DNA from: Aquabacterium sp.
Lineage (GTDB): Bacteria; Pseudomonadota; Gammaproteobacteria; Burkholderiales; Burkholderiaceae_C
Assembly: GCF_049274795.1 (NCBI RefSeq)
Contig: NZ_JBASTH010000100.1
Coordinates: 31,719 to 95,718 of the forward strand
Length of the DNA: 64,000 bases
Direction of reading: 5' to 3'
In this document: one piece after another, positions 25,356-49,472 of the stretch
Position numbering within the stretch: position 1 is the stretch's first letter
How the letters are laid out: every line of letters starts with the position of its first letter
Translations under genes and position numbers: made by a program
The notes under the pieces: generated by a model
The model's input: only the letters and a program-made list of their open reading frames with translations
Database searches by the model: none
Told to the model about the DNA's origin: nothing

Positions 25356-28300
25356 TCAGATCAGCAGATTGTTCTGGTTGTTGTCATCCAGCAATCCCTT
25401 GGTCGGATCCACCGCCAGCGACACGTTGACCGAGGATGCCTCCGTGGTCGTCGTGCTCGCTGCCGCCGTCGTCGTGGTGTCGGCTGCATGCGAGGGCTCT
25501 GCCGTGCCGCCCGCTGTGGATGTGGTCGTGTTCGCCTGCGCCGCCGTACCTGTGGCCGCACCGGAGGTGGCCGTGGTACTCGGCACGGACGATGACAAGG
25601 CATCCAGTGCCGCCGATTGACCCGGCCCGGCCAGCACATCTTCTGTGCTCAGGCCCGCCAAGCCATCCTGCGACACGGTGGTGTCACGGTGGAACCAGAC
25701 GTCGGCCATCGCGTAGGTGGAGCCGTCGACCTTGGTGTAGCTCGACACCAGGCCCAGCAGGTTGCCGTTGTCCATGTCCGTGCCGGTCTTCGCGTTGAGG
25801 TCCAGCGACAGGATGCCCAGCTCGGCCAGCGACCGCAGTTCGCCTGCACCGCTGATGCCGTCCTGGTTGGCATCGATCCAGACCTGCAGTTTGCTGAAAT
25901 CCAGATCGGCGGCATTGATGATGCCATCGCGGTTGCTGTCCAAGGCCGCGAGGGCGGCGTAGCCATTGCCGGCTCGCTGGCCTTCGGCATTGAGTGTGGA
26001 GCCACCGAAGAGTTCACTGCCGTTGCCGATCAGGCCGTCACCATTGCGGTCCATCACCAGCAGGCCATCCTGTGCCGATGCCCAGCCCACACGTGCACTG
26101 GTGTTGCCCGTGGCATTGAGGTCGAAGTACACGCCGTTGGCGCTCGAGATGGTTCTCACGCCGTCGCCGTTGAGGTCCAGCACGATCGGCGTAGCGGCCT
26201 GGTAGGCATCCAGTTGCACACCGGTCATGACCCCGATGTCGGTTGTCTCGAAGGACTGCAATTGCGTCATGGACATCGCGCGGATGTCATCGGTCTGCAG
26301 GGCCACGACCTGATCGGTCGTGAAGGCCTGGATCTGCTCCGTGGTCAGGGCCGCCGCCTGGGCGGTGGTCAGGGCCATGATCGACTGGGTCGTCAGGGCC
26401 TCGAACTGCTCTGTCGTCAGCGAGCGGATCTGGGTCGTCGTCAGGGCAGCGAACTGCGCCGTGGTCAGCACCTCGATGTCCGTCGTCTCGATGGCCTGGA
26501 TCTGCGCCGTCGTCAGTGCCGCGATCTGCGCCGTGCCGAACATGTGGATCTGGTCCGTCGTCAAGGCGGCGATGCTGTCGGTGCTCAGACCGGCGATGGC
26601 CGCCGTCGTCAGCACCACCAGATCGGTCGTCTCGATGGCCTGGATCTGCTCGGTGGTCAGGGCTGCGGCCTGTGCGCTGGTCATGGCGCGGAACTGGGCG
26701 GTTCCCAGCGCCGCGATGTCCTGCGTCTCGAAGGCATGGATCTGCTCGGTGCTCAGTGCCACCATCTGGGCCGTCGTCAGAGCGCCCACATGGTCCGTGG
26801 TCAGGGCCTGGATCTGGTCGGTTTCCAGTGCGCGGATCTGGGCTGTCGTCAGCGACTTGATCTGGGCCGTGGTCATGGCCGCCAGGTCACCCGTCTCGAT
26901 CGCCTGGATCTGGGCGGTCGACAGGGCAGCCACCTGGGCCGTGATCAGCGCCGCCACCTGTTCGCTGCTCAGTGCCGCGATGCCGTCCGTGGTCAGGCCG
27001 CGCACAGCGGCTGTCGTCAGGGCGGCCAGGTCCGTGCTTTCCAGCGCGGCCACCTGCTCGGTGGTCAGTGCGGCGACCTGGGCACTGCTCAGGGCGCGGG
27101 CCTGCAGCGTCGTCAGCGCGGCGACATCGGTCGTCTCCATCGCCTGCAGTTGCGTGGTGCTCAAGGACGCCACTTGCGCGGTCGTGAGACCGGCCACCTG
27201 CTCGGTGGTCAGGGCCTGGATCTGGTCTGTGTTCAGCGAGCGGATCTGCGCGGTGCTCAGCGATGCGATCTGTGCGGTCGTCATCGCGGCCAGGTCACCC
27301 GTCTCGATGGCGGCCACCTGCGTGGTCAACAGCGAGGCGACCTGGGCCGTGCCCAGCGCAGCCACCTGCTCGGAGCTCAGCGCAGCGATGCCGTCCGTGG
27401 TCAGGCCACGCACCGCAGCCGTCGTCAGGGCAGCCACGTCCGTGCTTTCCAGCGCAGCCACCTGCTCGGTGCTCAGCGCAGCCGTCTGGGCGCTGGTCAG
27501 TGTGCGGACCTGGGCCGTGCTCAGGGCGGCGATGTCACCCGTCTCGATCGCCCGGATCTGAGCGGTCGACAAGGCAGCCACCTGAGCGGTGGACAGCATG
27601 GCGATCTGATCAGAACTCAGCGCCGCGATGCCATCCGTGGTCAGGGCACGCACAGCGGCCGTGGTCAGCGAAGAGATGTCACCGGTTTCCAGCGCGGCCA
27701 CCTGTTCGGTGGTCAGCGCGGCGGCCTGGGCACTGGTCAGGGCACGCACCTGCGTGGTCGTCAAGGCGGCGATGTCGCCGGTCTCGACAGCCTGCAGCTG
27801 GGTGGTGGTCAGTGCGGCCACCTGGGCCGTGGTGAGCGATGCAATCTGGTCGGTTGTGAGCGACTGGATCTGATCGGTCTCCAGCGCACGGACCTGGGCC
27901 GTGGTCAGGGACTTGATCTGCGCGGTCGTCATCGCGGCCAGGTCACCCGTCTCGATGGCGGCCACCTGCGTGGTCAACAGCGAGGCGACCTGGGCCGTGC
28001 CCAGCGCAGCCACCTGCTCGGAGCTCAGCGCAGCGATACCGTCCGTGGTCAAGCCACGCACCGCGGCCGTCGTCAGGGCCGCCACGTCCGTGCTTTCCAG
28101 CGCGGCCACCTGTTCGGTGGTCAGCGCGGCGGTCTGGGCGCTGGTCAGCGTGCGGACCTGGGCCGTGGTCAGGGCAGCGATGTCACCGGTCTCGATCGCC
28201 TGGATCTGGCTGGTCGACAGGGCGGCCACCTGGGCGGTGGACAGCGACGCGATCTGGTCGGAGTTCAGTGCGGCGATGCCATCCGTGGTCAGGCCACGCA

Positions 28301-31300
28301 CCGCGGCCGTCGTCAGCGCCGCGATGTCGGTCGTCTCGATCGCGGCCACCTGTTCGGTGGTCAGCGCGGCGGCCTGGGCGCTGCTCAGGGCGGCGATCTG
28401 CGACGTGCGCAGGGCAGCGATGTCGCTGGTCTCGATCGCCTGCAACTGCGTGGTGGTCAGGGCCGCGACTTGCGCGCTGGTGAGTTCACCCACCTGCTCG
28501 GTGGTCAGCGCCTGGATCTGGTCGGTTTCCAGGGCACGGATCTGGGCCGTGGTCAGGGACTTGATCTGCGCGGTGGTCATCGCGGCCAGGTCACCCGTCT
28601 CGATGGCGGCCACCTGCGCGGTCGACAGCGACGAGATCAAGGCCGTGCCCATGGCTGCGATCTGCTCGGAGCTCAGGGCGGCGATGCCGTCCGTGGTCAG
28701 GCCACGCACTGCGGCCGTCGTCAGGGCCGCCACGTCCGTGCTTTCCAGCGCGGCCACCTGCTCGGTGGTCAGCGCGGCGGTCTGGGCGCTGGTCAGCGTA
28801 CGGACCTGGGCCGTGGTCAGGGCAGCAATGTCACCCGTCTCGATGGCCTGGATCTGGCTGGTCGACAGGGCAGCCACCTGGGCCGTCGACAGCATGGCGA
28901 TTTGATCGGAGTTCAGCGCCGCGATGCCGTCGGTGGTCAGGCCACGCACAGCGGCGGTGGTCAGCGAGGAGATGTCGCCGGTTTCCAGCGCAGCCACCTG
29001 TTCGGTGGTCAGCGCGGCGGCCTGGGCACTGCTCAGGGCACGCACCTGCGTGGTCGTCAGGGCGGCGATGTCGCCGGTCTCGACGGCCTGCAACTGCGTG
29101 GTGCTCAGCGCGGCCACCTGGGCCGTCGTGAGAGATGCGATCTGGTCGGTTGTGAGCGACTGGATCTGGTCGGTGTCCAACGCGCGGATCTGGGCCGTGG
29201 TCAGGGACTTGATCTGCGCGGTCGTCAACGCGGCCAGGTCACCCGTCTCGATCACAGCCACCTGGTTGGTCGACAGCGACGAGAGCTGCGCCGTGCCCAT
29301 GGCAGCGATCTGCTCGGAGTTCAGGGCTGCGATCGCATCCGTGGTCAGACCGCGCACCGCAGCCGTCGTCAGGGCAGCCACGTCCGTGCTTTCCAGCGCG
29401 GCCACCTGTTCGGTGGTCAGGGCGGCCGTCTGGGCGCTTGTCAGGTTGCGGACCTGCGTCGTCGTCAGGGCAGCAATGTCACCCGTCTCGATCGCCTGGA
29501 TCTGAGAGGTCGACAGCGCGGTGATCTGGGCCGTCGACAGGGATGCGATCTGGTCAGAGTTCAGTGCGGCGATACCGTCCGTGGTCAGGCCACGCACGGC
29601 GGCCGTGGTCAGTGCCGCAATGTCGGTCGTCTCGATCGCGGCCACCTGTTCGGTGGTCAGGGCGGCGGCCTGGGCGCTGCTCAGGGCACGCACCTGCGTG
29701 GTGGTCAGCGCGGCGATGTCGGTCGTCTCGACGGCCTGCAACTGGGTGGTGCTCAGGGCGGCCACCTGGGCCGTCGTGAGGGCGGCCACCTGATCCGTGG
29801 TCAGGGCCTGGATCTGGTCGGTTTCCAGTGCACGGACCTGGGCTGTGCTCAGGGACTTGATCTGCGTGGTCGTCATCGCGGCCAGGTCACCCGTCTCGAT
29901 GGCGGCCACCTGCGTGGTCGACAGCGACGAGACCTGGGCCGTGCCCAGTGCCGCGATCTGGTCGGTGTTCAGGGCTTCGATCGCATTCGTGGTCAGGCCA
30001 CGCACCGCAGCGGTGCTCAGGGCCGCCACGTCGGTGCTTTCCATCGCAGCGACCTGTTCGGTGGTCAGCGCGGCCGCTTGGGCACTGGTCAGGGCACGCA
30101 CCTGCGTCGTCGTCAGGGCGACGATGTCGTCCGTGGCGATCGACTGGATCTGCGTGGTCGTGAGGCTCACCACCTGCGCGGTGGTCAGGCTGGCGACCTG
30201 CTCGGTGATCAGGGCCACCAGTTGGTCCGTGTTCAGGGCGCGGATCTGGGCCGTGCTCATGGCCTTGATCTGCGTCGTGGTCAGGGCCGAGATGTCACCG
30301 GTTTCGATGGCCGCCACCTGCGTGGTCGACAGGCTGGCCACCTGCGCGGTGGTCAGCGATGCGATCTGCTCGGAGTTCAGCGCAGCGATGGCATCCGTGC
30401 TCAGGCCGCGGATCGCCGCTGTGGTCAGCGCCGCCAGGTCGTTGCTTTCCATCGCAGCCACCTGCTCGGTGGTCAGCGCGGCCGTCTGGGCACTGGTCAG
30501 ATTGCGGACCTGGGCGGTGGTCAGCGCAGCGATGTCACCGGTCTCGATGGCCTGGATCTGGCTGGTCGACAGGGCGGCCACCTGGGCGGTGGACAGCGAC
30601 GCGATCTGGTCGGAGTTCAGTGCGGCGATGCCATCCGTGGTCAGGCCACGAACAGCCGCCGTGCTCAGCGCGGCGATGTCGGTGGTTTCGATCGCGGCCA
30701 CCTGTTCGGTGGTCAGGGCTGCCGCCTGGGCGCTGCTCAGGGCCGCGATCTGCGCGGTTCGCAGGGCAGCGATGTCGCTGGTCTCGATGGCCTGCAGTTG
30801 GGTGGTGCTCAGGGCGGCCACCTGGGCGCTGGTGAGTTCACCCACCTGCTCGGTGGTCAGGGCCTGGATTTGATCGGTGTTCAGCGCGCGGATCTGCGCG
30901 GTGCTCAAGGACTTGATCTGGGCGGTCGTCAGCGCTGCCAGGTCACCCGTTTCTATGGCAGCCACCTGCGTGGTCGACAGCGAGGCGAGCTGGGCCGTGC
31001 CCATGGCGCCGATCTGCTCGGAACTCAGGGCTGCGATGGCATCCGTGCTCAGGCCACGCACCGCAGCCGTGGTCAGGGCGGCCACATCCGTGCTTTCCAG
31101 CGCGGCCACCTGCTCGGTCGTCAGGGCCGCTGTCTGGGCGCTGGTCAGCGTACGGACCTGGGCCGTGCTCAGGGCCGCGATGTCGCCGGTCTCGATCGCC
31201 TGGATCTGGCTGGTCGATAGGGCGGCCACCTGGGCCGTGGACAGCATGGCGATCTGGTCGGAGCTCAGGGCCGCGATGCCGTCGGTGGTCAGGCCACGCA

Positions 31301-34529: not shown

Positions 34530-34784
34530 GGGAAACCCCGGTAAAACTTGATGAGGCATGAACCGGGACGCTGAGAGCGTGAGCACCGGTCCATGCGGAT
34601 GACTGGCCGTTATGAACAGTGATGGACGGTGATGAGCTTAGAAAGCCCTGCAAGGAGCAAGACCGGAAATACCGCCCTCAATCCCTGCCATCTCCGTCAC
34701 CGCCCAAAAAATGAGCTACGGACGTCTTATCGGTTGGGAAAACCATGTCTTTAGTAACGTTCTTCAAACGAGCACGGCATCACG

Positions 34785-36782: not shown

Positions 36783-36785
36783 CCC

Positions 36786-40042: not shown

Positions 40043-40125
40043 GCGGCAACGGGCAGTGACAGGCCCAGGGCGACCACGCTCAGCCGCTTCAGAGGGGCCA
40101 GCCCCTCCCCTCCAGGCTCAGCCTG

Positions 40126-40944
40126 TCAGGTCGGCAGCTCCAGCCGCCCCAGATTGCGCGGCAGCCCACCGATGTCCACCTTGCGTGGTGGCGCCTCCGG
40201 CAGCAGCACAGGAGGCTCTCGCCGCAGCAAGGGCACCCAGAAGGGCATGTTGTAGCGCCACCAGGCATGCCCGCCCATCGGCAGTTGCCCACCATTGGAT
40301 GCCAGGTACTCGTTCGGCTTGAGCTCCAGCGAGAAGCGCGAAGCGGTCAGCTCATCGGGCAGCGTGAACCGTTCCGAGAGCGGTCCCATCAGCGAGAAGA
40401 ACAGGTCTTCGCTCGACCCGGTTTCCGAGAAGAACCACAGCGCCTCCGGGAACTCATCGAGCAGCTCGATACAGCGCGCCGAGCGGCGCAGGCTGAAGCC
40501 GCCATTGCCGACCTTCGTGCTCACCAGCCGTCCCGCGTCCCCGCGGAATCTGTCCACGCGAACATCCAGCTCGATCCCGTTGGGCCAGGGCGCCCCCACA
40601 TAGTCATACGGCTGGGCGCACCAGTGATCCAGATCGTCCCGCAGCACGATGACATCGGTCTGCAGGATCAACATGAACTCGTGCGATGCGTAGCGCTCAT
40701 AGAAGCCACGGCTCATCAGCAGACGGCTGTAATCCCGCACCGAGGTGAAGCTGGTGTCAGCAAAGCGGTCCACCGCGATATGGGGATGGCGGGCCAGGTG
40801 GGCGGACATGTCCAGGCTGTCGGGCGCAATGAAACGTACCTCGCGCGCCGCAAGGGTTTCGAGCGAATAGCCCAGGGAGAACTGCTCCAGCTCACTGAGC
40901 TCCGCCTTGTAGATCGGCACCAGCACGATGACTTTGCTGTTCAC
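40126..40944 (-). CDS. DUF5672-like protein (putative glycosyltransferase-associated)
   Basis: The pattern VLVPIYKAELSELEQFSL...FMLILQTDVIVLRDDLDHWCAQPYDYVGAPW...VGNGGFSLRR resembles DUF5672. I prefer the GTG at 40944, which is preceded by GGAGA; the longer ORF reaches 41007. Confidence 0.55.
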   Translation of the reverse strand: MNSKVIVLVPIYKAELSELEQFSLGYSLETLAAREVRFIAPDSLDMSAHLARHPHIAVDRFADTSFTSVRDYSRLLMSRGFYERYASHEFMLILQTDVIVLRDDLDHWCAQPYDYVGAPWPNGIELDVRVDRFRGDAGRLVSTKVGNGGFSLRRSARCIELLDEFPEALWFFSETGSSEDLFFSLMGPLSERFTLPDELTASRFSLELKPNEYLASNGGQLPMGGHAWWRYNMPFWVPLLRREPPVLLPEAPPRKVDIGGLPRNLGRLELPT

Positions 40945-40982
40945 AGTCTCTCCATCAGATATTGTTTCGGTCTGCCAGGCAC

Positions 40983-42389
40983 TCACAAGCCCTGGATACC
41001 CAGCCACGTGGACAGGCTCTCACCCATCGACCGCAATTGTGCATTCGCCTGGTAGCCATCGTGCAGCGCATTGACGTACGCAATGCGCAGGTTGAAGTGA
41101 TCGCCTTCCGCGGACATCACATCGAACAGTGAGCGACGCCCCAACTGCGACCATTGCTGGAAGGTCGCGGCACGCACCTTGTCGCTGTCCTTCAGGATGT
41201 CCACGAAGCGCCGGGCACGATCGAATGAGGCCACGGCGGCTTCATGCACCTCCGACACCCGCGCGGCCCGGCTGGCCAGCAGTTCCGCATATTGCTGACG
41301 GGCTGACTCGGCACGGCGGCTAGCGGCGGCAGCCGCAGCCTGATCGGAGCCCCCCCTAAAAACCGAGTAGGTCACCGACAGGCCTGCCTGGGCACTCGCC
41401 GTCTTGGTCTCGCCGCGCAGCCCCGCTGTGGACGACACCACCCAGTTGACCTGAGGCTTGAGCGCCGCAGACATGGCATCGGCGTAGCGCTCCGAGGCCT
41501 CGCTTTGGGCGCGCATCTGGCGCAGTTCACTGCCCTGCTCCATCAGGCGCAACACTTCGCCGGTGTCCAGAGTCTGGCCCAGGGCGGCAGAGATGCCATC
41601 ACCCGCGCCGATCTGCTCGCCAATCAGCTTGCGCAGCCGGATCTCCGTCTGCCGCATCTGCGTCAGCGCGGCATCACGCGCCATCTCGGCCTGGGCCTGG
41701 GTCTTGCGCACCTGCACCAGTTCACTGGCGCGGCCACGGTCTTCCGCCACGATCTGCTGCAAGGCATCCACGAGGCAAGCCATCTTGCGCGTGTACTGCT
41801 GGTACACCTGCGCCTGCTGCCGATACCGGTTGCGCTCCAGCGCCGTGCTGATCGTCTCCAGCACCACCTGCTCGCGAGTAGACTGTGCTGTGAAGGTCGC
41901 CGCCTTGGCCAGTTCACGCCGCCACTGGGTGAGCTGGCTCAAGCGCCCACCGTCATAGATCAGCCCACTCACATTGAGCGTGGCGCCGGCATACGTGCCC
42001 GACGCCCACGGAATGCCCGTGCTGCGGGAAGCCCCCGGCCCCACCGTGCCTGTGACGGACACCTGGGGCAAGGCAGCCCCTCGCGTTTCATCGACATCGT
42101 AGGCAGCCGCATCGGCCAGCAGTTTCACCGCCCCTACCTGCGCACTGCGGCGAGAGGCTTCGCGGGCAATGTTCTGCAATTGCGCCATAGGGTTCAAGGC
42201 CGCATCAGCGGGCACAGCAAGATCCTGAGCCGTGGCGACCGGTGCCAGCGCCTTGGCGGCCCCTTTGCCATTGGATTTCGTGACCTGGTTGGCCAGCTCC
42301 TCGCTGCACAGCGCGGCCTGGGCGGCCACGGCCGACAGGCTCATGGCCGAAACCACCACCCATCGGGTCAACATGAAAGCTTGCTTCAT
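40983..42389 (-). CDS. TolC-family outer-membrane factor of the type I secretion system (LapE-like)
   Basis: It has a signal peptide (MKQAFMLTRWVVVSAMSLSAVAAQA) and two TolC-type repeat halves. It starts 4 nt downstream of the HlyD-family gene. Confidence 0.85.
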   Translation of the reverse strand: MKQAFMLTRWVVVSAMSLSAVAAQAALCSEELANQVTKSNGKGAAKALAPVATAQDLAVPADAALNPMAQLQNIAREASRRSAQVGAVKLLADAAAYDVDETRGAALPQVSVTGTVGPGASRSTGIPWASGTYAGATLNVSGLIYDGGRLSQLTQWRRELAKAATFTAQSTREQVVLETISTALERNRYRQQAQVYQQYTRKMACLVDALQQIVAEDRGRASELVQVRKTQAQAEMARDAALTQMRQTEIRLRKLIGEQIGAGDGISAALGQTLDTGEVLRLMEQGSELRQMRAQSEASERYADAMSAALKPQVNWVVSSTAGLRGETKTASAQAGLSVTYSVFRGGSDQAAAAAASRRAESARQQYAELLASRAARVSEVHEAAVASFDRARRFVDILKDSDKVRAATFQQWSQLGRRSLFDVMSAEGDHFNLRIAYVNALHDGYQANAQLRSMGESLSTWLGIQGL

Positions 42390-42393
42390 GGCG

Positions 42394-43626
42394 TCATCTC
42401 TCACTGAATGCTTCCTGCGCCCGCAACACTGGCTTGAGCAGGAACTGCAGCACCGAACGCTCGCCGGTGCGGATTTCAACCGTCGCGGTCATGCCCGGCA
42501 TGACCGACAGCGACTTGCCCTTCGCCTTGAGGGTCGACACCTCCGAGCGGATCAGGGCCCGGTAGTAGGTGGTGTCGGTGTTGGCCGCATTCTTCGGGTC
42601 CTCGCCCAGCGCATCGGGGCTCAGGTACTCCACCGTGCCGCTCAGGCCGCCGTAGGTGTAAAAGTCGTACGCCGTGAGCTTGACCGTTGCCGGCGAGCCA
42701 ACCCGCACAAAGCCCACGTCCTTGGGCCGGATGCGTGCCTCGACCAGCACCCGCGGACCAATGGGCACGATCTCCATGATGGTGGCCCCGGCCGGCACCA
42801 CCCCGCCCAAGGTGCCCAGCTTGATGCTCTTGACCAAGCCACGCACAGGTGAGTAAAGCGTGGTCCGCCGCATCACGTCCTGCTTGACGACCATCTGCTC
42901 GTCGAGTTGAGCCAGCTCCGACCGCACCCGCACCAGCTCCGAACTGGCATCCTGGCGAAAGCGGTTGGTGCGCTCCTGGATCTGCAGGAACAACTCGTTG
43001 GCCTGGCGGCGCAGGCGCATCACCTCCACCTCGGACATCAACCCCTTGTCCGCCATGCGCTCGGACATGCCGAGCTCACGCCGGATCAGCCCCAGGCTGC
43101 GCTGGATCACGCCCACGGATTCATCCAGCGCCATGCGCCGAGCCTGGAAGGCTTCGGTTTCGGCCTGGAGCACGTCGGCATGCTCCTTCAAATCGGCCGC
43201 AAAGCGCAGGGGGCGCCCTGAAGCCTCCGCCTCCAGGCGTGTCAAGGTGGCCCTGAGGGCAATCCGCTTGGCCTGACCTTCGTTCTGCGCCGCTTCCACG
43301 CGGGTGGGATCGAGCTGCAGCAGGGCCTGCCCCTGCTCGACCAGCGCACCTTCGCGCACCATCAGCTTGCCCAGGATGCCCCCTTCCAGGCTGGCGATGA
43401 TCTGCTCGCGCCCATCGGGCACCACCCGGCCGTCGGCACGGGTGACCTCATCGACGCGCGCCACGCCTGCCCACACCAGCGCTCCCACCACCACGACCAA
43501 CATCAGGTAAAGCGCCCAGGTCGCGCCCGGGGTGGATTCGGCCAGTTCAGCCTCCTTCACCCCCGAGAGGAAGTCTTCGTCCCCCCGGTAATAGCGCCCA
43601 CTGTTGCGCTCCTCACGCCGTGCCAT
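42394..43626 (-). CDS. type I secretion membrane-fusion protein (HlyD/LapC family)
   Basis: It has an N-terminal cytoplasmic stretch, a TM helix (WALYLMLVVVVGALVWAGV), a long coiled coil and the C-terminal motif MPGMTATVEIRTGERSVLQFLLKP, which is typical of T1SS HlyD proteins. Confidence 0.9.
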   Translation of the reverse strand: MARREERNSGRYYRGDEDFLSGVKEAELAESTPGATWALYLMLVVVVGALVWAGVARVDEVTRADGRVVPDGREQIIASLEGGILGKLMVREGALVEQGQALLQLDPTRVEAAQNEGQAKRIALRATLTRLEAEASGRPLRFAADLKEHADVLQAETEAFQARRMALDESVGVIQRSLGLIRRELGMSERMADKGLMSEVEVMRLRRQANELFLQIQERTNRFRQDASSELVRVRSELAQLDEQMVVKQDVMRRTTLYSPVRGLVKSIKLGTLGGVVPAGATIMEIVPIGPRVLVEARIRPKDVGFVRVGSPATVKLTAYDFYTYGGLSGTVEYLSPDALGEDPKNAANTDTTYYRALIRSEVSTLKAKGKSLSVMPGMTATVEIRTGERSVLQFLLKPVLRAQEAFSER

Positions 43627-43629
43627 GGC

Positions 43630-46011
43630 TCAAGCTCCCGACGCCATCAGGTGCCCGTCTGCATCAGCGGGGCCTGGAGCAGCCCCCGCCTGGGGAGCCG
43701 CCGCGGGAGCCGGGCGTTTACCGGCCAGCGCCGCCAGCACCTGGGCCTTGGGACCATCGGCCAGGATGCGTCCCCCATCGACCACGACCACCCGCTCGAC
43801 CACGTCCAGCAAGGCGGGGCGGTGCGTCACCACCACCAGCGTGCGCTCGCCGATCGATGTCTTGAGATGGCGGATGAAGTTCATCTCGGCCTGCGCATCC
43901 ATGGAACTGGTCGGCTCGTCCAGCAGCAGGATCTGCGGGTGCGTCACGAGGCAACGCGCCAGGGCCACCAGTTGTCGCTGCCCACCGGACAGCAGCCCTC
44001 CGGCCTCACCCACCGGCAGGTCGTAACCCAGCGGGTGCGACGCGGCGATCTTGTCCAGCCCCGTCAGCCTTGCCACCGAGAGAAAGTGCTCCACATCGGC
44101 ATTGCGGCGCCCCAGCAGCACGTTGTCCTTCAGCGTGCCGGCAAAAAGGCGTGGCTCCTGTGACACGAAGCCCATGTGCGCCCGGAAATCGGAAGGGTCG
44201 ATCTGCCGCAGGTCAATGCCATCGACCTCCACGAAGCCATCCGAAGGGCTGTAGAGCCCGCCCAGCATCCGCAGGATGGTGGACTTGCCGCTGCCGATCT
44301 TGCCCAGCAAGGCCACACGTTCACCCGGCTGGATATTGAGCGAAACCCCTTTGAGCACCGTGGGCGCATGCTGCCTGGTGCCTTGGGGATACGCGAAGCG
44401 CACCTCGTGCATGCCCAGTTGCCCCTGCAGCGCCGGGCGCGACAGATAACGCTTGCCTGGATCGCGCTCGGTGGGCATGGCCATCAACTGATCGAGCGAC
44501 TTGAGCGCAGCCTTGGCACCCTGGTAACGCGATGCCAGGTTGACCACCATGCCCAGCGGCGCGATCGCCCGCCCGCCAAACATGACGGCGGCGATCAGGG
44601 CCCCGCCCGTCAACTGCCCTGCATCGATCAGGTGCACTCCCCACAGCAGCATGGCGACCGTGATCAGCTGTTGCGCCACCATCGCGAAGTTGTTGACCCA
44701 GCTCGACAGCAAGCGGGCCTTCAGCGACGACACCGCGGCTGCGGCGTTGGCATCCTCGTAGCGCTGGATGAAGTGGCCCTGCGCACCGGCTGCGCGCACA
44801 TCCTCCATGCCTTCCACCGTCTCGATCAGCACGCCATGCAGATCGGCCTGCTGCCCCATGTTGGCCCGCATGTGGCGGCGCAGCAGGCTCTGGATGCCCA
44901 GCGTCATGCCCAGGATCAGAGGGATGGCCACCAGCAGCACCACCACCATCGGGCCGGCCACCAGCCAGGTCACCAGTACGAACAGGAAGATGAACGGCAG
45001 GTCCGTCACCGCCGAGATCGTCGCGGAAGTAGAGAAATCGCGCACCAGCTCGATCTGGGCCAGCCGGTGGGCAAAGGCACCCGCCGACTCGGGGCGGTGC
45101 TCCAGCCGGATGCCCATGGCCTGGCGGAAAATGGCATTGCCCAGGGCCAGGTCAGCCTTCTTGCCGGCCATGTCGATCAGGTAGCTGCGCAGTTGCCGCG
45201 CCACCAGATCGAAGGCAATGGCGACCAGCACGCCAGCCCCCATGGACCACAGCGTCACGAAAGCCTTGTTGGGGATCACGCGGTCGTATACCACGGACGT
45301 GAACAGGCCCGTCAGGATCATCAGCACATTGCTGAGCAAGGCGGCCAGCATGGCCGAGCGGTAGTAAGGGATGTAGCGCTTGATCGTCTGCCACAGCCAG
45401 TGCGAGCCCTCGCCTTCATCCTCGTCCGAGGGACGCGCACTGCGCGCTCCTGGCTTGAGTGCTGCGATCAGGGTGTAGCCGGAGTACTCCGCCAGCAGTT
45501 CTTCTTCAGTGGCGGTGCACAGCTCTTCTTCCGCGCCAGGCAACAGCACTTCGTAGCGATCGCCGCCTGACCGCTTGGAACGGCCACCGCTCAGGCGACG
45601 CGTCACGATGCAGGCATCGCCGTTCTTGAGCAGCATCACCACCGGCATCAGCAAGGACAGGATCTTGCTCGGAGGGCGCCGCACCACCGAGGCGCTGAAC
45701 CCCGCGTGGCGCAGCAGGCTGACGGCCTGCTGGGGCGTCATCGGCCCCTCAAGCGCCAAGCCATCGAGCAAGGACTGCTCGGAACGCTCGATGCCATGGT
45801 GACGGCACAACCACAAGAGCGCTTCGAGCAAGGGATCACCGCCGGCTCGCACGCTGCCGCCCACCTCGGGGGCGCCCGCTATGGGCTGCTCCTCGAAGTG
45901 CTCCGACGTGGAAGGATCGTGCGGATGGTCCAAAACCTTGACTCCCGCCCTGGCTGGATTGAATGGGCGTTCCCCGATGCTAGGCAAAGCCGGCGTTTTC
46001 TTTAGGGCCAT
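43630..46011 (-). CDS. type I secretion ABC transporter permease/ATPase with an N-terminal C39-like domain (LapB/HlyB family)
   Basis: The Walker A is LLGKIGSGKSTIL, the signature is LSGGQRQLVALARC and the Walker B is ILLLDEPTS. Six TM segments are present, and the N-terminal C39-like region is LLEALLWLCRHHGIERS. The start is uncertain (ATG at 46011, GTG at 46089). Confidence 0.85.
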   Translation of the reverse strand: MALKKTPALPSIGERPFNPARAGVKVLDHPHDPSTSEHFEEQPIAGAPEVGGSVRAGGDPLLEALLWLCRHHGIERSEQSLLDGLALEGPMTPQQAVSLLRHAGFSASVVRRPPSKILSLLMPVVMLLKNGDACIVTRRLSGGRSKRSGGDRYEVLLPGAEEELCTATEEELLAEYSGYTLIAALKPGARSARPSDEDEGEGSHWLWQTIKRYIPYYRSAMLAALLSNVLMILTGLFTSVVYDRVIPNKAFVTLWSMGAGVLVAIAFDLVARQLRSYLIDMAGKKADLALGNAIFRQAMGIRLEHRPESAGAFAHRLAQIELVRDFSTSATISAVTDLPFIFLFVLVTWLVAGPMVVVLLVAIPLILGMTLGIQSLLRRHMRANMGQQADLHGVLIETVEGMEDVRAAGAQGHFIQRYEDANAAAAVSSLKARLLSSWVNNFAMVAQQLITVAMLLWGVHLIDAGQLTGGALIAAVMFGGRAIAPLGMVVNLASRYQGAKAALKSLDQLMAMPTERDPGKRYLSRPALQGQLGMHEVRFAYPQGTRQHAPTVLKGVSLNIQPGERVALLGKIGSGKSTILRMLGGLYSPSDGFVEVDGIDLRQIDPSDFRAHMGFVSQEPRLFAGTLKDNVLLGRRNADVEHFLSVARLTGLDKIAASHPLGYDLPVGEAGGLLSGGQRQLVALARCLVTHPQILLLDEPTSSMDAQAEMNFIRHLKTSIGERTLVVVTHRPALLDVVERVVVVDGGRILADGPKAQVLAALAGKRPAPAAAPQAGAAPGPADADGHLMASGA

Positions 46012-46175
46012 AAGGGATGGCAACACCAGCCTTTTCCCTCTTGAGCACGGCCAGCGCTGTCGCCACGCACCAAACCGGGAACTGCACACGATTTCCGGGC
46101 CTATTGCCCCGGATGTCCGGCGCTCGCAGAACTAAGCTGTCGAGCAACATCGGCCCACGGCCCCACGAGACAGAC

Positions 46176-46922
46176 ATGAGCGACAACCCCAGGCAGATCC
46201 ACATCTTCTATCGCCATGTGCACGTGAAGGCCAATGCCCGCAGCCGCGACCCCAACAAGACGCGGCCAGAGTGGTTTTCGCACGAAATCTGCTTTCGCAA
46301 CCTGCTCGACACCGTGACCCGCGACCCGCTGGGCCACCGGGTGACGATCACCGTGATGTACGACGGCCCGCTGGAGGATCTCCAGACTGACTTCATCGCA
46401 CCCTACGTCGCCAGCAAAGACGCCCGCGTGCGGCTGCAACTGCTGCAAGCCGGTTCTGACCGCAACTCCTTTCTGATCACCCTCGGCCACGCCAACGGCC
46501 TGCCGTTGCCGGACACCGACCTGCTGTACTTCCTGGAAAACGACTACCTGCACCAGCATGGCTGGGTAAGCAAGGTATTCGAGCTGTACGACAGCGGCCA
46601 GGCCTTCGACATGGTCTCCCTGTACGACCACAAGGACAAGTACATGCTCCCGATGTATGCCTCACTGACTGCCCGACTCTGCCTCAGCCGCTCGCACCAC
46701 TGGCGCACCACGCCATCCACCTGCGCGTCCTTCCTGTTGTCCAAGGCAGCACTGGCGCGCGACCATGATGCGCTGACCAGTGGCCAGACTGACTACTACT
46801 TCTTCCGCGAAGTGGTCGAGAACCGCGGCCGCGTGCTGCTCTCGCCCATCCCGGGCCTGTCGACCCACGCCATGGAGGGCTACCTCAGCCCCAACGTGGA
46901 CTGGGCCGCGCTGGCTCAGTGA
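46176..46922 (+). CDS. hypothetical protein, possibly a GT-A-fold glycosyltransferase
   Basis: The 248-aa product begins MSDNPRQIHIFYRHVHVKANARSRDPNKTRPEWFSHEICFRNLL and contains LLYFLENDYL, a D-x-D-like motif. It lies directly upstream of the DegT aminotransferase. Its function is not established. Confidence 0.4.
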   Translation: MSDNPRQIHIFYRHVHVKANARSRDPNKTRPEWFSHEICFRNLLDTVTRDPLGHRVTITVMYDGPLEDLQTDFIAPYVASKDARVRLQLLQAGSDRNSFLITLGHANGLPLPDTDLLYFLENDYLHQHGWVSKVFELYDSGQAFDMVSLYDHKDKYMLPMYASLTARLCLSRSHHWRTTPSTCASFLLSKAALARDHDALTSGQTDYYFFREVVENRGRVLLSPIPGLSTHAMEGYLSPNVDWAALAQ

Positions 46923-46965
46923 CATGTCCCGTACCGCTCGCCCCGTCTGCTTTCCGGAGTCCGCC

Positions 46966-48132
46966 ATGAGCGACAAGCCGATCTACGTCACCCAGCCCTT
47001 CCTGCCGCCACTGGCAGAGTTTGCCCCCTATCTGGAACAGATCTGGAACAGCAAGGTGCTGACCAATGGCGGCCCGTTCCACCAGCAACTTGAAAAGGCC
47101 CTGTGCGAGTACCTGGGGGTCGATCACATCGCCCTGTTCAGCAACGGCACCCTCGCCCTGGTTACGGCGCTGCAGTCCCTGCGCATCACCGGGGAGGTGA
47201 TCACCACGCCCTACTCTTTCGTCGCCACGGCGCACTCGCTGCTGTGGAATGGCATCAAGCCTGTCTTTGTCGACATTGATCCACGCACACTCAATCTCGA
47301 CCCGCGCCAAATCGAGGCCGCGATCACGCCGCAGACCACCGCCATCATGCCGGTGCACTGCTATGGCCATCCCTGCGATGTCGATGCCATCCAGCGCATC
47401 GCGGACAACTACAACCTGCGCGTGATCTATGACGCCGCCCATGCCTTCGGCGTGGAGCATGGCGGCAGCAGCATCCTGCGCACGGGCGACCTGTCGGTGC
47501 TGAGTTTTCACGCCACCAAGGTGTTCAACACCTTCGAAGGCGGCGCCATCATCTGCCCCGATGCCAAGACCAAGCAACGCATCGACCACCTCAAGAACTT
47601 CGGCTTCGTCGACGAACTGACTGTGGTGGCGCCCGGCATCAACGGCAAGATGAGCGAACTCAATGCCAGCCTGGGGCTGCTGCAGCTCAAGCACATCGAC
47701 CGCGCCATCGAGCGCCGCAAGGAGATCGATGCCATCTACCGCTCGCAACTTGACGGCATCAAGGGCCTGAAGTGCGTGCAGGACACGGGTGAGAGCCGGC
47801 AGAACCACTCCTACTTCCCGATCCTGATCGACAGCGAATTCCCGATCAGCCGCGACGACCTCTATGACGTGCTCAAGAAGCACAACATCTACGCACGCCG
47901 CTACTTCTACCCGCTGATCTCGGAGTTCCCGATGTACCGAGGCCTTCCCTCGGCCCACGCGAGCAACCTGCCGCACGCCACGGCCGCATCACGCCAGGTA
48001 CTGTGCCTGCCGATCTACCCGGACCTGACCGGCGCCGACCAGGCCCGCGTGATCAAGCTGGTCAAGGCGGCGGCACGCCGCTCGGCGGCCAAGGCAGGCA
48101 AAGCCCCCACCTCACCACCCGTTGCGGCTTAA
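46966..48132 (+). CDS. DegT/DnrJ/EryC1/StrS-family sugar aminotransferase
   Basis: The product begins MSDKPIYVTQPFLPPLAEFAPYLEQIWNSKVLTNGGPFHQQLEKAL and contains DAAHAFG and SFHATKVFNTFEGG (the PLP lysine). The ATG at 46966 fits the family N-terminus. Confidence 0.85.
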   Translation: MSDKPIYVTQPFLPPLAEFAPYLEQIWNSKVLTNGGPFHQQLEKALCEYLGVDHIALFSNGTLALVTALQSLRITGEVITTPYSFVATAHSLLWNGIKPVFVDIDPRTLNLDPRQIEAAITPQTTAIMPVHCYGHPCDVDAIQRIADNYNLRVIYDAAHAFGVEHGGSSILRTGDLSVLSFHATKVFNTFEGGAIICPDAKTKQRIDHLKNFGFVDELTVVAPGINGKMSELNASLGLLQLKHIDRAIERRKEIDAIYRSQLDGIKGLKCVQDTGESRQNHSYFPILIDSEFPISRDDLYDVLKKHNIYARRYFYPLISEFPMYRGLPSAHASNLPHATAASRQVLCLPIYPDLTGADQARVIKLVKAAARRSAAKAGKAPTSPPVAA

Positions 48133-48154
48133 GCCCAGACAACCCCAAAAACAA

Positions 48155-48184
48155 AACCCCACAGCCCAGAAAGGCTGCGGGGTT
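48155..48184 (+). terminator. imperfect hairpin after the aminotransferase gene (possible terminator, no clear U-tract)
   Basis: The sequence AACCCCACAGCC-cagaaa-GGCTGCGGGGTT pairs at 11 of 12 positions. Confidence 0.3.
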
Positions 48185-48191
48185 GGATGCT

Positions 48192-48265
48192 TGGAGGCGC
48201 GGCCCGGAGTCGAACCGGGCTAGACGGATTTGCAATCCGGTGCATAACCGCTTTGCTACCGCGCC
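48192..48265 (-). tRNA. tRNA-Cys (anticodon GCA)
   Basis: The reverse complement is GGCGCGGTAGCAAAGCGGTTATGCACCGGATTGCAAATCCGTCTAGCCCGGTTCGACTCCGGGCCGCGCCTCCA. It has a 7-bp acceptor stem (GGCGCGG/CCGCGCC), a T-arm (CCCGG-TTCGACT-CCGGG), the anticodon loop TTGCAAA and an encoded CCA. Confidence 0.9.
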
Positions 48266-48280
48266 GAAAAAAAGGGAAGC

Positions 48281-49445: not shown

Positions 49446-49472
49446 CTCAAGATCTATTGCCACGCATAATTC

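Follow-up and report, generated by a model that had tools for sequence, protein, structure and literature searches.

Enzymes of the HMW1C type carry no TPRs, N-glycosylate asparagine in NX(S/T) sequons, and belong to a route in which export proceeds by Sec and TpsB. HMW1 of Haemophilus influenzae is reported to be glycosylated at many sites in the cytoplasm and then exported (PMC3012730). The TPR-glycosyltransferase FlmG of Caulobacter likewise acts on flagellins in the cytoplasm (PMC7591256), and in Enterobacteriaceae flagellin glycosylation islands combine GT41 with FkbM or SAM methyltransferases and with aminotransferases of the DegT/FdtB kind (PMC4875605). Structures have been solved for XcOGT and TtOGT, two bacterial homologues of OGT, and both were inactive on bacterial lysates and proteomes (PMC9715652). 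The cyanobacterial SwmA and oscillin, Ca-binding RTX (type I secreted) surface or fibril proteins, have been reported to be glycosylated (PMC3034196); neither the glycosylation enzymes nor a GT41 link is given in that paper.

Here, we analyzed a 64-kb stretch of DNA (the window) from Aquabacterium sp., a freshwater betaproteobacterium, in which the genes for a threonine-rich repeat fibre, for a dedicated type I export pump and for a protein glycosyltransferase resembling OGT stand side by side. This trio recurs in dozens of bacteria, which points to an undescribed route to a glycosylated secreted fibre. Neither ALTTAQ proteins nor a GT41-T1SS module turned up in a search of the literature, in agreement with a preliminary description of this DNA, which knew of no such module; its claim of novelty is narrowed by the precedents of SwmA, oscillin and the pairing of HMW1C with its adhesin.

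Gene content of the locus

The features of the locus are as follows (window positions, strand).

25356..34529, minus: ALTTAQ-repeat gene for the candidate secreted protein (the cargo), 3057 aa (Pfam PF20080, ALTTAQ_rpt, E=0)
26205..34529, minus: cargo repeat region, aa 1-2775, 345 octads in a single phase; predicted solenoid of 5-6-residue helices
25692..26192, minus: C-terminal domain of ~167 aa; four EF-hand/dockerin-like loops (DxNxDG) and a terminal ADVWF (alignment)
25356..25691, minus: S/T-rich linker (40% Ser/Thr) and extreme C-terminal tail ...GLLDDNNQNNLLI, then stop; putative type I secretion signal
34530..34784, no strand: 255-bp intergenic region between the divergent cargo gene and GT41 operon
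34785..36782, plus: TPR + GT41 (OGT/XcOGT-like) protein glycosyltransferase, 665 aa (PF13844, 294 bits)
36786..38021, plus: TPR + GT23-like (NodZ/FUT8-like) putative fucosyltransferase, 411 aa (weak Pfam match)
38015..40042, plus: fusion of GT4 glycosyltransferase and FkbM-family methyltransferase, 675 aa (TIGR01444, 44.8 bits, cut-off 37.7)
40126..40944, minus: DUF5672 protein, 272 aa, terminal gene of the T1SS operon (Pfam)
40983..42389, minus: TolC-family outer-membrane protein, 468 aa (Pfam OEP, 2.4e-21)
42394..43626, minus: HlyD-family T1SS periplasmic adaptor, 410 aa (TIGR01843, 321 bits, cut-off 208.65)
43630..45933, minus: LssB-type T1SS ABC permease/ATPase with N-terminal accessory domain, 767 aa by the contig gene call, start uncertain (TIGR03375, 787 bits, cut-off 693.1)
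46176..46922, plus: orf248, conserved DegT partner (no Pfam match)
46966..48132, plus: DegT/DnrJ-family sugar aminotransferase (PF01041, 2.9e-106)

All genes named in the preliminary description were recovered, with coordinates equal to those proposed there or shifted by a few codons. For the ends of TolC and ABC it had used the longest open reading frames, and the contig gene calls are shorter. The secretion genes form an operon in the order LssB-type ABC-HlyD-TolC-DUF5672 beside the cargo/GT41 unit. The TolC-family protein scored below the cut-off of TIGR01844.

The GT41 protein matched human OGT (E=4.5e-106) and XcOGT (E=1.4e-93), and retains the OGT/XcOGT catalytic motifs EHPVGHLM, FNHDYKISP and HPYNAHTT. 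The last of these is identical in XcOGT, including the Tyr (Tyr554 in the window enzyme) that aligns with hOGT C917. With the NCBIfam model for NGTferases (NF049992), which has a cut-off of 1000, it scored 24 bits. Signal peptides and transmembrane segments were absent from each glycosyltransferase in the window, which fits a cytoplasmic reaction. From its sequence, the GT41 enzyme looks competent and cytoplasmic.

The NodZ-like gene starts 3 nt after GT41 and is overlapped by the GT4-FkbM gene by 7 nt. A profile of the NodZ-like protein matched NodZ (E=1.4e-14), FUT8 (~5e-6) and, at its N-terminus, TPR structures (9e-21) in the PDB, and the HVRGTDK motif is present. In relatives this gene is frequently fused to GT41, and the NodZ-like protein has a TPR of its own; both features link the accessory enzymes to a process directed at proteins. 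The AlphaFold model of the DUF5672 protein (pLDDT 87) had its best Foldseek matches in glycogenin (GT8), UGGT (GT24) and Lgt1 (E ~1e-6, TM ~0.5), and the protein is predicted to be a GT-A-fold glycosyltransferase. It is a better GT-A candidate than orf248, for which the earlier label "GT-A-like" found weak support: homologues of orf248 yielded weak GT2 matches, and it is possibly a GT2-like enzyme. In 9 of 79 related loci orf248 adjoins DegT, close to GT41. The nearest NCBIfam model for the DegT protein is DesI-like, below cut-off.

Architecture of the repeat protein

The cargo has a mass of 307 kDa, a pI of 4.05 and 799 Ser/Thr residues, and PF20080 matches it in ~90 stretches. All 147 matches to a strict octad motif in the 2775-aa repeat region share one modulo-8 frame, with the consensus L-[T/S/E]-[T/S]-x-[Q/D]-[V/I]-[A/R/Q]-A, and a super-repeat of 216 aa recurs at 75% identity. 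This regularity is far above chance. Cys, Pro and Tyr are absent from the repeats, and Asn makes up 0.8% of their residues. Position 3 is Thr or Ser in 100% of octads, and Ser plus Thr come to 2.13 per octad over the 345 octads, bearing out the earlier estimate of about two.

AlphaFold2 modeled 272 aa of repeats with a pLDDT of 94.4 as 34 helices for its 34 octads, and a PDB search with this model returned no close fold (top match mesothelin, TM 0.2-0.34). In the model, every short helix begins with the invariant Thr/Ser, and position 2 together with the Q/D at position 5 is compatible with helix capping. The invariant residue could thus be structural, and glycosylation is not required to explain its conservation. 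As an alternative to the octad Thr/Ser, the S/T-rich linker close to the C-terminus is a candidate acceptor.

The ~167-aa C-terminal domain was found in every ALTTAQ protein examined, with 49 invariant columns (alignment A2). No RTX GGxGxD motif was found in the cargo, and there is no hydrophobic segment at its N-terminus. When loci were compared, tails of the class seen in the window cargo (...DD/E..N/Q..[PL]L[IL]) accompanied T1SS of the LssB type and tails of other classes accompanied other ABC types, so that tail class appears to go with T1SS type. Its missing N-terminal hydrophobic segment, its conserved C-terminal domain and tail, and the correspondence of tail class and ABC type in these loci give the cargo the look of a T1SS substrate.

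Conservation of the neighbourhood and possible targets

A total of 79 loci from other species were retrieved by GT41 homology alone (61-76% identity). An ALTTAQ gene was located within 10 kb of the GT41 orthologue in 52 of these (24/33 of those with full flanks), at a median gap of ~1.2 kb (P ~3e-68, taking a 2% chance expectation). The hosts belong to five orders (Burkholderiales, Nitrosomonadales, Neisseriales, Rhodocyclales and Chromatiales), and at least three gene orders occur: divergent in Aquabacterium (the window locus), tandem cargo-GT41-DUF5672-ABC-HlyD-TolC in Sphaerotilus (L032/36/38/41/66), and convergent in L017-L037 and others. Some genomes have all the genes in one co-directional string, as in Iodobacter L080: cargo-ABC-HlyD-GT41-MT-MT-x-FdtA-acetyltransferase-DegT-DUF5672, with ~10 nt between HlyD and GT41. 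The linkage of GT41 and cargo outlasts gene rearrangement. GT41 is not always next to the cargo gene, however (L087, L088 and L116).

The preliminary description had suggested that octad-repeat proteins might co-occur with GT41 and FkbM genes; this holds for GT41, whereas FkbM was present in 4/79 loci. NodZ-like genes were found in 18, GT4 in 17 and DUF5672 in 39. The conserved core is cargo, GT41 and T1SS, often with DUF5672, and does not extend to FkbM, NodZ-like or GT4 genes. Other genomes have other accessory sets (FdtA/FdtB/acetyltransferase, GDP-mannose dehydratase, SAM methyltransferases).

A second TPR-GT41 clade (37-46% identity) directly follows ALTTAQ genes. In the two such loci that were annotated (L130 and L166), its neighbours are T1SS genes of other types, and no further glycosyltransferase was found in the part with annotation. 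The association covers three kinds of T1SS ABC transporter and both clades, and synteny is therefore conserved in relatives, where its lack had been named as grounds for abandoning the idea. The link looked weaker from the cargo side. Among 80 metagenome loci chosen by the cargo C-terminal domain, 31 had 8 kb or more of downstream flank, and GT41 was visible there in 7; of the eight whose upstream flank was usable, one showed GT41. Giant and tandem cargo genes fill the flanks and limit what these counts can show.

We considered whether the GT41 toolkit could instead be an island for the glycosylation of flagellin, next to ALTTAQ and T1SS genes through clustering of surface-structure genes and sharing no pathway with them. 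The SPINDLY-type GT41, FkbM, SAM-methyltransferase and DegT/FdtB genes are typical of such islands in Enterobacteriaceae (PMC4875605). An Azospira GT41 orthologue (70% identical) follows fliE inside the fliE-L cluster, and in some Rhodoferax GT41 is also directly after fliE, in both cases with no ALTTAQ gene in view. Flagellar genes adjoin GT41 in 8/79 loci and ALTTAQ genes in 5/80; these 13/159 (~8%), together with the match in toolkit, make flagellin a live alternative or additional target. The 64-kb window, however, matched none of eleven flagellar proteins, and the 8/79 compare with 52/79 for ALTTAQ. L050 and L062 have flagellin genes 4-6 kb from GT41, but a TolC-family gene lies between the flagellar genes and GT41. 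In L080 and Sphaerotilus, GT41 lies between cargo and T1SS genes or inside their string, and the second clade sits directly behind ALTTAQ genes. We regard flagellin as the real target in place of the cargo as unlikely.

Slightly less likely again is that the products of the glycosyltransferases and sugar-modifying enzymes are surface polysaccharides or glycans of the LPS type, for example an anchor or coat for an unglycosylated fibre. RsaA of Caulobacter is anchored by O-antigen, and O-antigen and EPS clusters are just as typical a setting for GT4, GT2-like, DegT, FdtA and methyltransferase genes. The accessory genes differ by lineage, as O-antigen loci do, and a Verrucomicrobiota DUF5672 gene lies in a generic sugar cluster without GT41, ALTTAQ or T1SS genes. 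The conserved partner of the cargo, however, is GT41, even where it is the sole glycosyltransferase found (L130 and L166), and all characterized GT41 members known to us act on proteins. The NodZ-like enzyme, with its own TPR and frequent GT41 fusion, also argues against a polysaccharide role. In the window cluster and in L080, no flippase, polymerase, chain-length regulator, polysaccharide exporter or priming transferase was matched (Wzx, Wzy, Wzm/Wzt, Wza and an initiating phosphoglycosyltransferase were absent among the cluster Pfam matches).

Least probable of all is that TPR-GT41 is mainly a chaperone or regulator that holds unfolded cargo or gates the T1SS, or modifies other cytoplasmic proteins, leaving the cargo unglycosylated. 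In favour of this are the frequency of TPR domains among secretion chaperones, weak NCBIfam matches to T3SS chaperone models, the lack of known bacterial substrates for XcOGT and TtOGT (PMC9715652) and the reported modification of multiple cellular proteins by the Yersinia pestis GT41 enzyme HmwC (PMC11329713). Against it, catalytic and nucleotide-binding motifs are invariant throughout the GT41 clade, as would be expected if selection maintains an active enzyme, genes for sugar-nucleotide biosynthesis and additional glycosyltransferases accompany GT41, and the XcOGT gene has a quite different context, a housekeeping hemA-prfA-OGT string with no cargo or T1SS near.

Proposed mechanism and comparison with known systems

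Given the linkage of GT41, ALTTAQ and T1SS genes, its recurrence in the second clade, and the apparent correspondence of tail class and T1SS type, cytoplasmic O-glycosylation of the fibre ahead of type I export is the best explanation, and we consider it probable from gene neighbourhood and homology. The glycosylated T1SS fibre of the preliminary description is partly supported, by the synteny, catalytic motifs and cytoplasmic enzymes, and qualified by the varying modification enzymes and the rival flagellin target. The locus would contain all that is needed to make, glycosylate and export a single giant extracellular fibre, presumably an adhesive or structural one at the cell surface. The cargo has no signal peptide; its 345 octads, each predicted to fold into a short capped helix of a long α-solenoid rod, are followed by a domain of the Ca-binding type and, at the C-terminus, by a putative tail for type I secretion. 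The TPR domain of GT41 may bind the still unfolded cargo before or during its threading into the LssB-type ABC/HlyD/TolC channel, and the enzyme would O-glycosylate Ser/Thr, most likely in the octads, in the S/T-rich linker towards the C-terminus, or in both. Because Tyr occupies the place of hOGT C917, the donor is probably smaller than GlcNAc, for example a hexose or a deoxyhexose. Accessory enzymes that differ between lineages (in the window, the TPR-NodZ-like transferase, GT4-FkbM, DUF5672 and orf248/DegT) may extend or decorate the glycan afterwards. The process would resemble cytoplasmic flagellin glycosylation preceding export through the flagellar channel. We know of no demonstration that a heavily glycosylated 3000-residue chain passes through a T1SS.

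As in the HMW1 two-partner-secretion system of Haemophilus influenzae and relatives, where a GT41 gene (HMW1C/NGT) stands beside the giant exported adhesin that it modifies and that adhesin's dedicated transporter, enzyme, cargo and exporter are neighbours here. Unlike HMW1C, the window enzyme is of the TPR/OGT type, the cargo repeats are poor in Asn, and export would be by T1SS. With the flagellin islands and FlmG the proposed system shares a TPR-bearing cytoplasmic enzyme, O-glycosylation of Ser/Thr in a filament protein, and unfolded export, but the adjacent substrate is an ALTTAQ repeat protein, the exporter is an ABC/HlyD/TolC T1SS, and the window has no flagellar genes. Like XcOGT (Xanthomonas campestris XCC0866) and TtOGT, the enzyme combines TPR and GT41 without the metazoan intervening domain; in contrast to XcOGT, the natural substrate of which is not known (PMC9715652), the window clade has a candidate substrate next door. 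SwmA and oscillin have RTX nonapeptides and the cargo has none. The design also resembles that of adhesins of the LapA/SiiE/RtxA type, exported by ABC transporters of the LapB/LssB type, which are likewise very large, repetitive, acidic proteins with a dedicated LssB-family ABC/MFP/TolC trio and a Ca-binding C-terminal region. Unlike these, the cargo lacks Ig-like, BIg and cadherin repeats, begins directly with its repeats, so that no N-terminal retention module is apparent, is built from 8-residue predicted helix units with no close PDB fold, and has a protein glycosyltransferase as its conserved neighbour.

Layout and surroundings of the module

Contig gene calls and Pfam/NCBIfam scans agreed on eleven genes in the module, the stretch 25356-48132 of the window, which has a G+C content of ≈0.62–0.69. 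The window belongs to a metagenome contig of 84 kb, and it has a near-identical counterpart in a MAG. The nearest named relatives are Aquabacterium (Burkholderiales).

Genes of the module (window coordinates, strand, description)
25356-34529, minus, cargo (ALTTAQ octad-repeat protein)
34785-36782, plus, TPR-GT41 glycosyltransferase
36786-38021, plus, NodZ/FUT8-like protein
38015-40042, plus, GT4-FkbM fusion
40126-40944, minus, DUF5672 protein
40983-42389, minus, TolC-like protein
42394-43626, minus, HlyD protein
43630-45933, minus, LssB-type ABC transporter
45980-46150, minus, 56-codon ORF directly upstream of the ABC gene (contig gene call), without a family match
46176-46922, plus, orf248
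46966-48132, plus, DegT aminotransferase

The close packing of the three glycosyltransferase genes in the preliminary description was confirmed by the gene coordinates, with a 3-nt gap between the GT41 and NodZ-like genes and a 7-nt overlap between the NodZ-like and GT4-FkbM genes. The ABC, HlyD, TolC-like and DUF5672 genes all run in one direction and are separated by 3, 4 and 38 nt, so that DUF5672 looks like the last gene of the type I secretion system (T1SS) operon.

To the left of the module lie housekeeping genes (nitronate monooxygenase, acyl-CoA dehydrogenase, ETF alpha/beta and a racemase), and to its right a low-GC block begins near 48.1 kb. Directly after DegT, the G+C content drops from ≈0.67 to 0.47–0.56 (window ≈48100-62000), and the block starts with a START-domain protein (48597-49310) followed by a histidine kinase (49473-51107). 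The block probably stems from horizontal transfer and delimits the module on its right side. The window also holds another, different giant-protein export cluster (4308-18696, minus strand), in which a 2417-aa cadherin/DUF4347/Big_9 protein (4308-11561) is followed at higher coordinates by an HlyD-family protein (11589-12728), a SecA-like DEAD/preprotein-binding protein (12944-14980), a fusion of PqqD, peptidase M50 and HlyD (14977-17145) and a GAF + HlyD protein (17161-18696). At 2761-4311 lies a gene for a PAS-GGDEF cyclase.

The cargo, its putative exporter and the candidate glycosylation enzymes

The cargo has 3057 residues (307 kDa, pI 4.05, 799 Ser/Thr) and belongs to the ALTTAQ_rpt family (Pfam PF20080; E = 0, 2561.7 bits, 90 stretches). 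The repeats run from the very N-terminus, which has no hydrophobic segment, and residues 1-2775 comprise 345 octads in one unbroken phase with the consensus L-[T/S/E]-[T/S]-x-[Q/D]-[V/I]-[A/R/Q]-A. Every one of these octads has Thr or Ser at position 3, each octad carries 2.13 Ser + Thr on average, and Cys, Pro and Tyr are absent from the repeat region. A super-repeat of 27 octads (216 aa) has a self-identity of 75%. Among eight remoter ALTTAQ proteins, position 3 was Thr/Ser in 92–100% of octads in six, in 75% in a Gallionella MAG protein and in 53% in a Thiobaca protein.

A 272-aa stretch of repeats was modeled with AlphaFold2 using the cargo's own super-repeats as the alignment. The model (pLDDT 94.4) has one helix of 5–6 residues per octad, joined by linkers of 2–3 residues, and when the sequence is laid over it, each helix is predicted to begin at octad position 3. 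Positions 2 (T/S/E/N/G) and 5 (Q/D) presumably fit a helix N-cap/capping-box pattern. Foldseek found no close or convincing counterpart of the repeat model in the PDB, the best match being the mesothelin superhelix (TM 0.2–0.34). Pfam matches of the repeats to HTH_25, CAAP1, LRR_EndoS and Gp5_trimer_C were set aside as compositional and spurious.

The repeats are followed by a domain of 167 residues that contains four DxNxDG EF-hand/dockerin-like loops and was kept in every ALTTAQ protein examined, and then by an S/T-rich linker and the tail ...GLLDDNNQNNLLI. The cargo contained no GG.G.D match and no GGxGxDxUx nonapeptide, the marks of an RTX protein. ALTTAQ genes often occur as tandem paralogues, such as those of 2701 + 963 aa at 2603-13666 of locus L087 and of 3164 + 1513 aa at 1241-15420 of L093; others lie at 1-10684 of L088, at 15056-21870 of L033 and in L061/L084. 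An EF-hand-like C-terminal region was present in each tandem copy examined (L087, L093, L033, L088).

The ABC protein is a T1SS-class permease/ATPase (TIGR03375, LssB; 787 bits, cut-off 693.1), and the HlyD protein is a T1SS membrane-fusion protein (TIGR01843; 321.1 bits, cut-off 208.65). The TolC-like protein, with an N-terminus resembling a signal peptide, matched Pfam OEP above threshold (2.4e-21) and stayed under the cut-off of TIGR01844 (76.9 bits, cut-off 225). The cargo tail is conserved and falls into classes that, across the set of loci compared, correspond to the type of ABC protein. Tails ending in ...DD/E..N/Q..[PL]L[IL] occur with LssB-type transporters 55–84% identical to that in the window, and those ending in ...KQFDANG...GILAxK with an ABC protein that has a C39-like domain and is ≈27% identical. 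A third tail class was found in L166, where the ABC protein has no N-terminal accessory domain. The apparent match between tail class and pump type is the best support found here for ALTTAQ proteins as putative T1SS substrates.

The GT41 protein scored 293.8 bits against PF13844 (cut-off 25), which places it in the OGT-SPINDLY family (CAZy GT41), with E-values of 4.5e-106 to human OGT (hOGT), 1.4e-93 to the bacterial homologue XcOGT and 6.6e-74 to SPINDLY; more than 7000 homologues were found at E ≤ 1e-30 in this search. Multiple TPR families cover residues 48-221 and align with the hOGT TPRs, and the alignment shows that the metazoan intervening domain is absent, as it is in XcOGT. The active-site and nucleotide-binding motifs EHPVGHLM, FNHDYKISP and HPYNAHTTAAD, located by alignment with hOGT, were invariant in 15 homologues and 77 locus copies, and we take their key residues to be the equivalents of hOGT H498, K842 and H920/T921/T922. 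Judged by its sequence, this protein is a true OGT-type enzyme. The NGT (HMW1C-like) model NF049992 gave 24.1 bits against a cut-off of 1000, and with its TPRs the enzyme falls outside that class, whose members have an all-alpha domain instead.

Tyr554 occupies the position of hOGT C917, which is also Tyr in XcOGT, TtOGT (a second bacterial homologue) and SPINDLY. From the SPINDLY structure, it has been argued that a bulky residue at this position selects a donor smaller than GlcNAc, and XcOGT and TtOGT showed no O-GlcNAc activity on bacterial material (PMC9715652). Tyr554 thus suggests a donor other than GlcNAc, and the term “OGT-like” should therefore not be taken to imply “adds GlcNAc”.

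As a single sequence, the NodZ-like protein fell under the Pfam threshold for NodZ (25.5 bits vs. 28.3); a profile of seven homologues matched NodZ (2hhc) at 1.4e-14, FUT8 at ≈5e-6 and an N-terminal TPR at 9e-21. Its HVRGTDK sequence is presumably the HxRxxDK nucleotide-binding motif of NodZ/FUT8. In many species, the NodZ-like and GT41 parts are joined in one protein. Such fusions were seen in seven loci (L014, L015, L016, L018, L039, L044 and L048; ORFs of ≈1070–1100 aa), the GT41 database proteins P0012, P0018, P0021, P0022 and P0024 carry a NodZ Pfam domain, and a 1666-aa ORF in L064 is among the fusion candidates. L062 has a fusion of NodZ-like, methyltransferase and GT4 parts (11902-14973) beside a separate GT41. 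The GT4-FkbM call is solid by profile match, the C-terminal half of 38015-40042 scoring 44.8 bits against TIGR01444 (cut-off 37.7) and 46.3 against PF05050 (cut-off 22.7).

The AlphaFold2 model of DUF5672 (pLDDT 87.2) retrieved mostly GT8 glycogenin, GT24 UGGT and Legionella Lgt1 among the top 50 Foldseek matches (E ≈ 1e-6, probability 1.0, TM 0.43–0.53). Sequence profiles of DUF5672 and orf248 found no relatives in the PDB. DUF5672 has invariant QTD and SSED motifs, and is likely a GT-A-type transferase according to the model. Its use as a module-specific marker was rejected, since a homologue in Verrucomicrobiota (L167/L168, JBAXNG010000005.1; 53% identical) closes a generic sugar-nucleotide/glycan cluster in which GT41, ALTTAQ and T1SS genes are absent, which argues that DUF5672 is a general glycan-assembly enzyme. 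That cluster encodes an NTP-transferase, a CMP-sugar synthetase-like CTP_transf_3 protein, a C-methyltransferase, an epimerase and a Glyco_trans_1_2 protein. For orf248, weak GT2 matches were seen in homologues only. No signal peptide or transmembrane segment was found in GT41, the NodZ-like protein, GT4-FkbM, DUF5672 or orf248.

Conservation of the GT41–cargo pairing and the link with flagellin glycosylation

With an alignment of GT41 homologues, 80 loci with 10-kb flanks were fetched from one-genome-per-species contigs; one was from the same organism, and the GT41 proteins of the other 79 were 61–76% identical. The hosts include Burkholderiales (Aquabacterium, Sphaerotilus, Leptothrix, Ideonella, Rubrivivax, Polaromonas, Rhodoferax, Pseudorhodoferax, Janthinobacterium), Nitrosomonadales (Gallionella, Sideroxydans, Methylobacillus), Rhodocyclales (Azospira, Sterolibacterium), Neisseriales (Iodobacter) and Chromatiales (Thiobaca). 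Cultured carriers include Sphaerotilus natans ATCC 13338 (L032), S. sulfidivorans D-501 (L036), Leptothrix discophora CCM 2812 (L058), Iodobacter arcticus CCUG 62945 (L061) and Aquabacterium soli SJQ9 (L014). Of the 79 loci, 52 had an ALTTAQ gene inside the flank, and so did 24 of the 33 loci whose flanks were complete; the median distance was ≈1.2 kb. At a generous chance expectation of 2%, this corresponds to P ≈ 3e-68, a figure that overstates independence because the species are related. More telling is that the pairing has persisted through rearrangement. The two genes are divergent in this window, tandem in Sphaerotilus (cargo-GT41-DUF5672-ABC-HlyD-TolC) and convergent in many Aquabacterium and Leptothrix. 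In Iodobacter sp. BJB302 (L080), they form one co-directional string, cargo-ABC(C39-like)-HlyD-GT41-MT-MT-x-FdtA-hexapeptide acetyltransferase-DegT-DUF5672, with only ≈10 nt between HlyD and GT41.

Other partners among the 79 loci were DUF5672 (39), the LssB-type ABC protein (35), NodZ-like (18), GT4 (17), orf248 (9), DegT (8) and FkbM (4). A GDP-mannose 4,6-dehydratase was present in L062. NodZ-like, GT4 and FkbM were rejected as conserved partners, being found in a subset of loci only. The co-occurrence of octad-repeat proteins with GT41 and FkbM genes, considered in the preliminary description, thus held for GT41 (52/79) and failed for FkbM (4/79). The conserved core is cargo, GT41 and T1SS, and the remainder behaves as a variable glycan-decoration set.

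The converse comparison used 80 metagenome loci chosen by the C-terminal domain of the cargo. ALTTAQ repeats were found in the same ORF in 64 of them; the C-terminal domain is therefore nearly specific to the ALTTAQ family. GT41 was found downstream of the cargo in 7 of the 31 loci whose downstream flank reached 8 kb or more, and upstream in one of eight with usable upstream sequence. The link appears weaker from the cargo side than from the enzyme side, but this comparison is compromised, and its outcome is not read as evidence against the pairing. The cargo genes are 8–11 kb long and often tandem (L087, L088, L093), which uses up the 10-kb flanks, and in the arrangement of the window GT41 lies past the 5' end of the cargo. 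Most of the GT41 genes found in this way belong to a second clade, 37–46% identical to that of the window and with the motif FPFNAGTT, and lie directly after the cargo stop codon. In both annotated loci, the second-clade gene adjoins T1SS genes (L130, cargo-GT41-Sel1-ABC-HlyD; L166, cargo-GT41 / TolC-HlyD-ABC), and no other glycosyltransferase was found in their annotation. Loci without a visible GT41 still had sugar genes nearby (GT2, DegT and FdtA/acetyltransferase in L087; GT4 in L093). A Sel1-repeat protein, which lies between GT41 and ABC in L130 (4772-6661) and directly after the cargo in L136 (10889-12160), may be a further conserved accessory part of some ALTTAQ modules.

Flagellin glycosylation islands of Enterobacteriaceae contain SPINDLY-type GT41, FkbM/SAM methyltransferases and DegT/FdtB aminotransferases (PMC4875605), and FlmG, a TPR-glycosyltransferase, is reported to modify Caulobacter flagellins in the cytoplasm (PMC7591256). 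The gene content of the window matches that of such an island, with a protein-directed glycosyltransferase, a sugar aminotransferase and a methyltransferase. Its location does not, since no flagellar protein match was found across the 64-kb window. Flagellar neighbours were present in 8 of the 79 related GT41 loci. GT41 follows fliE inside the flagellar cluster of Azospira, several loci of the Rhodoferax type (L051, L057, L063) have tblastn matches to FliE that stop immediately upstream of GT41, and flagellin genes lie 4–6 kb from GT41 in L050 and L062, where a TolC-family gene stands between the flagellar genes and GT41. On the cargo side, an ALTTAQ gene adjoins YcgR-FliK-FliS-FliD-FliC in L136 and YcgR, FliK, FliD and FliC in L141. 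Altogether, flagellar genes border 13 of the 159 loci (8%), a share that is perhaps three times what would roughly be expected but is not robust to relatedness. (The flagella-adjoining loci include L019/L170, L050, L051, L056, L057, L062 and L063 on the GT41 side and L107, L110, L123, L136 and L141 on the cargo side.) This repeated adjacency points to a common ancestry, or to co-regulation, with flagellin glycosylation or motility, and we read the module as a relative of flagellin glycosylation islands in evolution and perhaps also in function. In some lineages, flagellin might be targeted as well. The ALTTAQ/T1SS pair is read from these neighbourhoods as the dominant and most intimate partner of GT41.

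Proposed mechanism and comparison with known systems

We propose that TPR-GT41 would O-glycosylate the unfolded cargo in the cytoplasm, after which the accessory enzymes would lengthen the glycan or decorate it. The chain would then leave through the LssB-type T1SS, C-terminus first, and once outside, the solenoid of short helices would fold together with the Ca-binding domain into a long acidic rod. Candidate acceptor sites are octad Thr3 or Thr2, as opposed to the S/T-rich linker. Flagellin provides a precedent for a glycosylated, unfolded filament protein passing a narrow export channel. We consider it rather probable that the cargo is a substrate of GT41; dense glycosylation along the whole repeat is doubtful. 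Equally tentative is the full picture, in which ALTTAQ proteins would be widespread surface rods of ≈0.3 MDa, built from hundreds of 8-residue capped helices, with the invariant Thr of each helix O-glycosylated in the cytoplasm by a dedicated TPR-GT41, at hundreds of sites per molecule and before type I secretion, by machinery shared or exchanged with flagellin islands. If true, ALTTAQ proteins would be mucin-like type I secreted glycoproteins and the first natural substrate class for orphan bacterial OGT/SPINDLY-like enzymes.

XcOGT and TtOGT have been structurally characterised and are still without a known bacterial substrate (PMC9715652). The module has good prospects of giving such orphan enzymes a natural one, the ALTTAQ cargo being a concrete candidate whose gene neighbours that of the enzyme in dozens of genera. 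Should this be confirmed, T1SS would join the flagellar T3SS, two-partner secretion and autotransporters as a route for cytoplasmically glycosylated cargo, with a bearing on the degree of decoration that its channel can accommodate. A function would be defined for two uncharacterised families, ALTTAQ repeats and DUF5672, and a new short-helix solenoid fibre would be added, probably important for flocs, sheaths or biofilms of Betaproteobacteria that live in freshwater or oxidise iron (Aquabacterium, Sphaerotilus, Leptothrix, Gallionella, Rhodoferax). The modular cargo–GT41 pair could also serve glyco-engineering of repeat proteins.

No description of a GT41–T1SS–cargo module or of ALTTAQ proteins was found in the searchable, incomplete literature. 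No paper mentioning ALTTAQ or PF20080 was found, the matches to PF20080 being unrelated catalogue numbers, and the literature on DUF5672, glycosylated RTX adhesins and Leptothrix sheath glycosyltransferases held nothing on such a module.

Closest in enzyme is XcOGT, whose neighbours, in contrast, are a hemA-prfA housekeeping string without a cargo. That all XcOGT-like enzymes serve T1SS fibres was rejected, since XcOGT itself has no adjoining T1SS cargo. In Xanthomonas campestris (L169 10001-11707, JANTYW010000001.1), it is the third gene of hemA-prfA-XcOGT, with a 4-nt overlap between the prfA stop and its own start. The matching position in E. coli is occupied by prmC, which hints at a translation-factor target for XcOGT. 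Closest in cargo class are the giant adhesins of T1SS, together with SwmA and oscillin, two RTX proteins reported to be glycosylated (PMC3034196), and closest in logic are HMW1C with HMW1 (GT41 and a TPS adhesin) and the flagellin glycosylation islands. The module fits neither the NGT nor the RTX class nor, in this window, a flagellin island; it does have the features of GT41, of ALTTAQ and, by its ABC and HlyD proteins, of T1SS, and our verdict is that it probably represents an island for cytoplasmic protein glycosylation that is linked with an exporter of its own.
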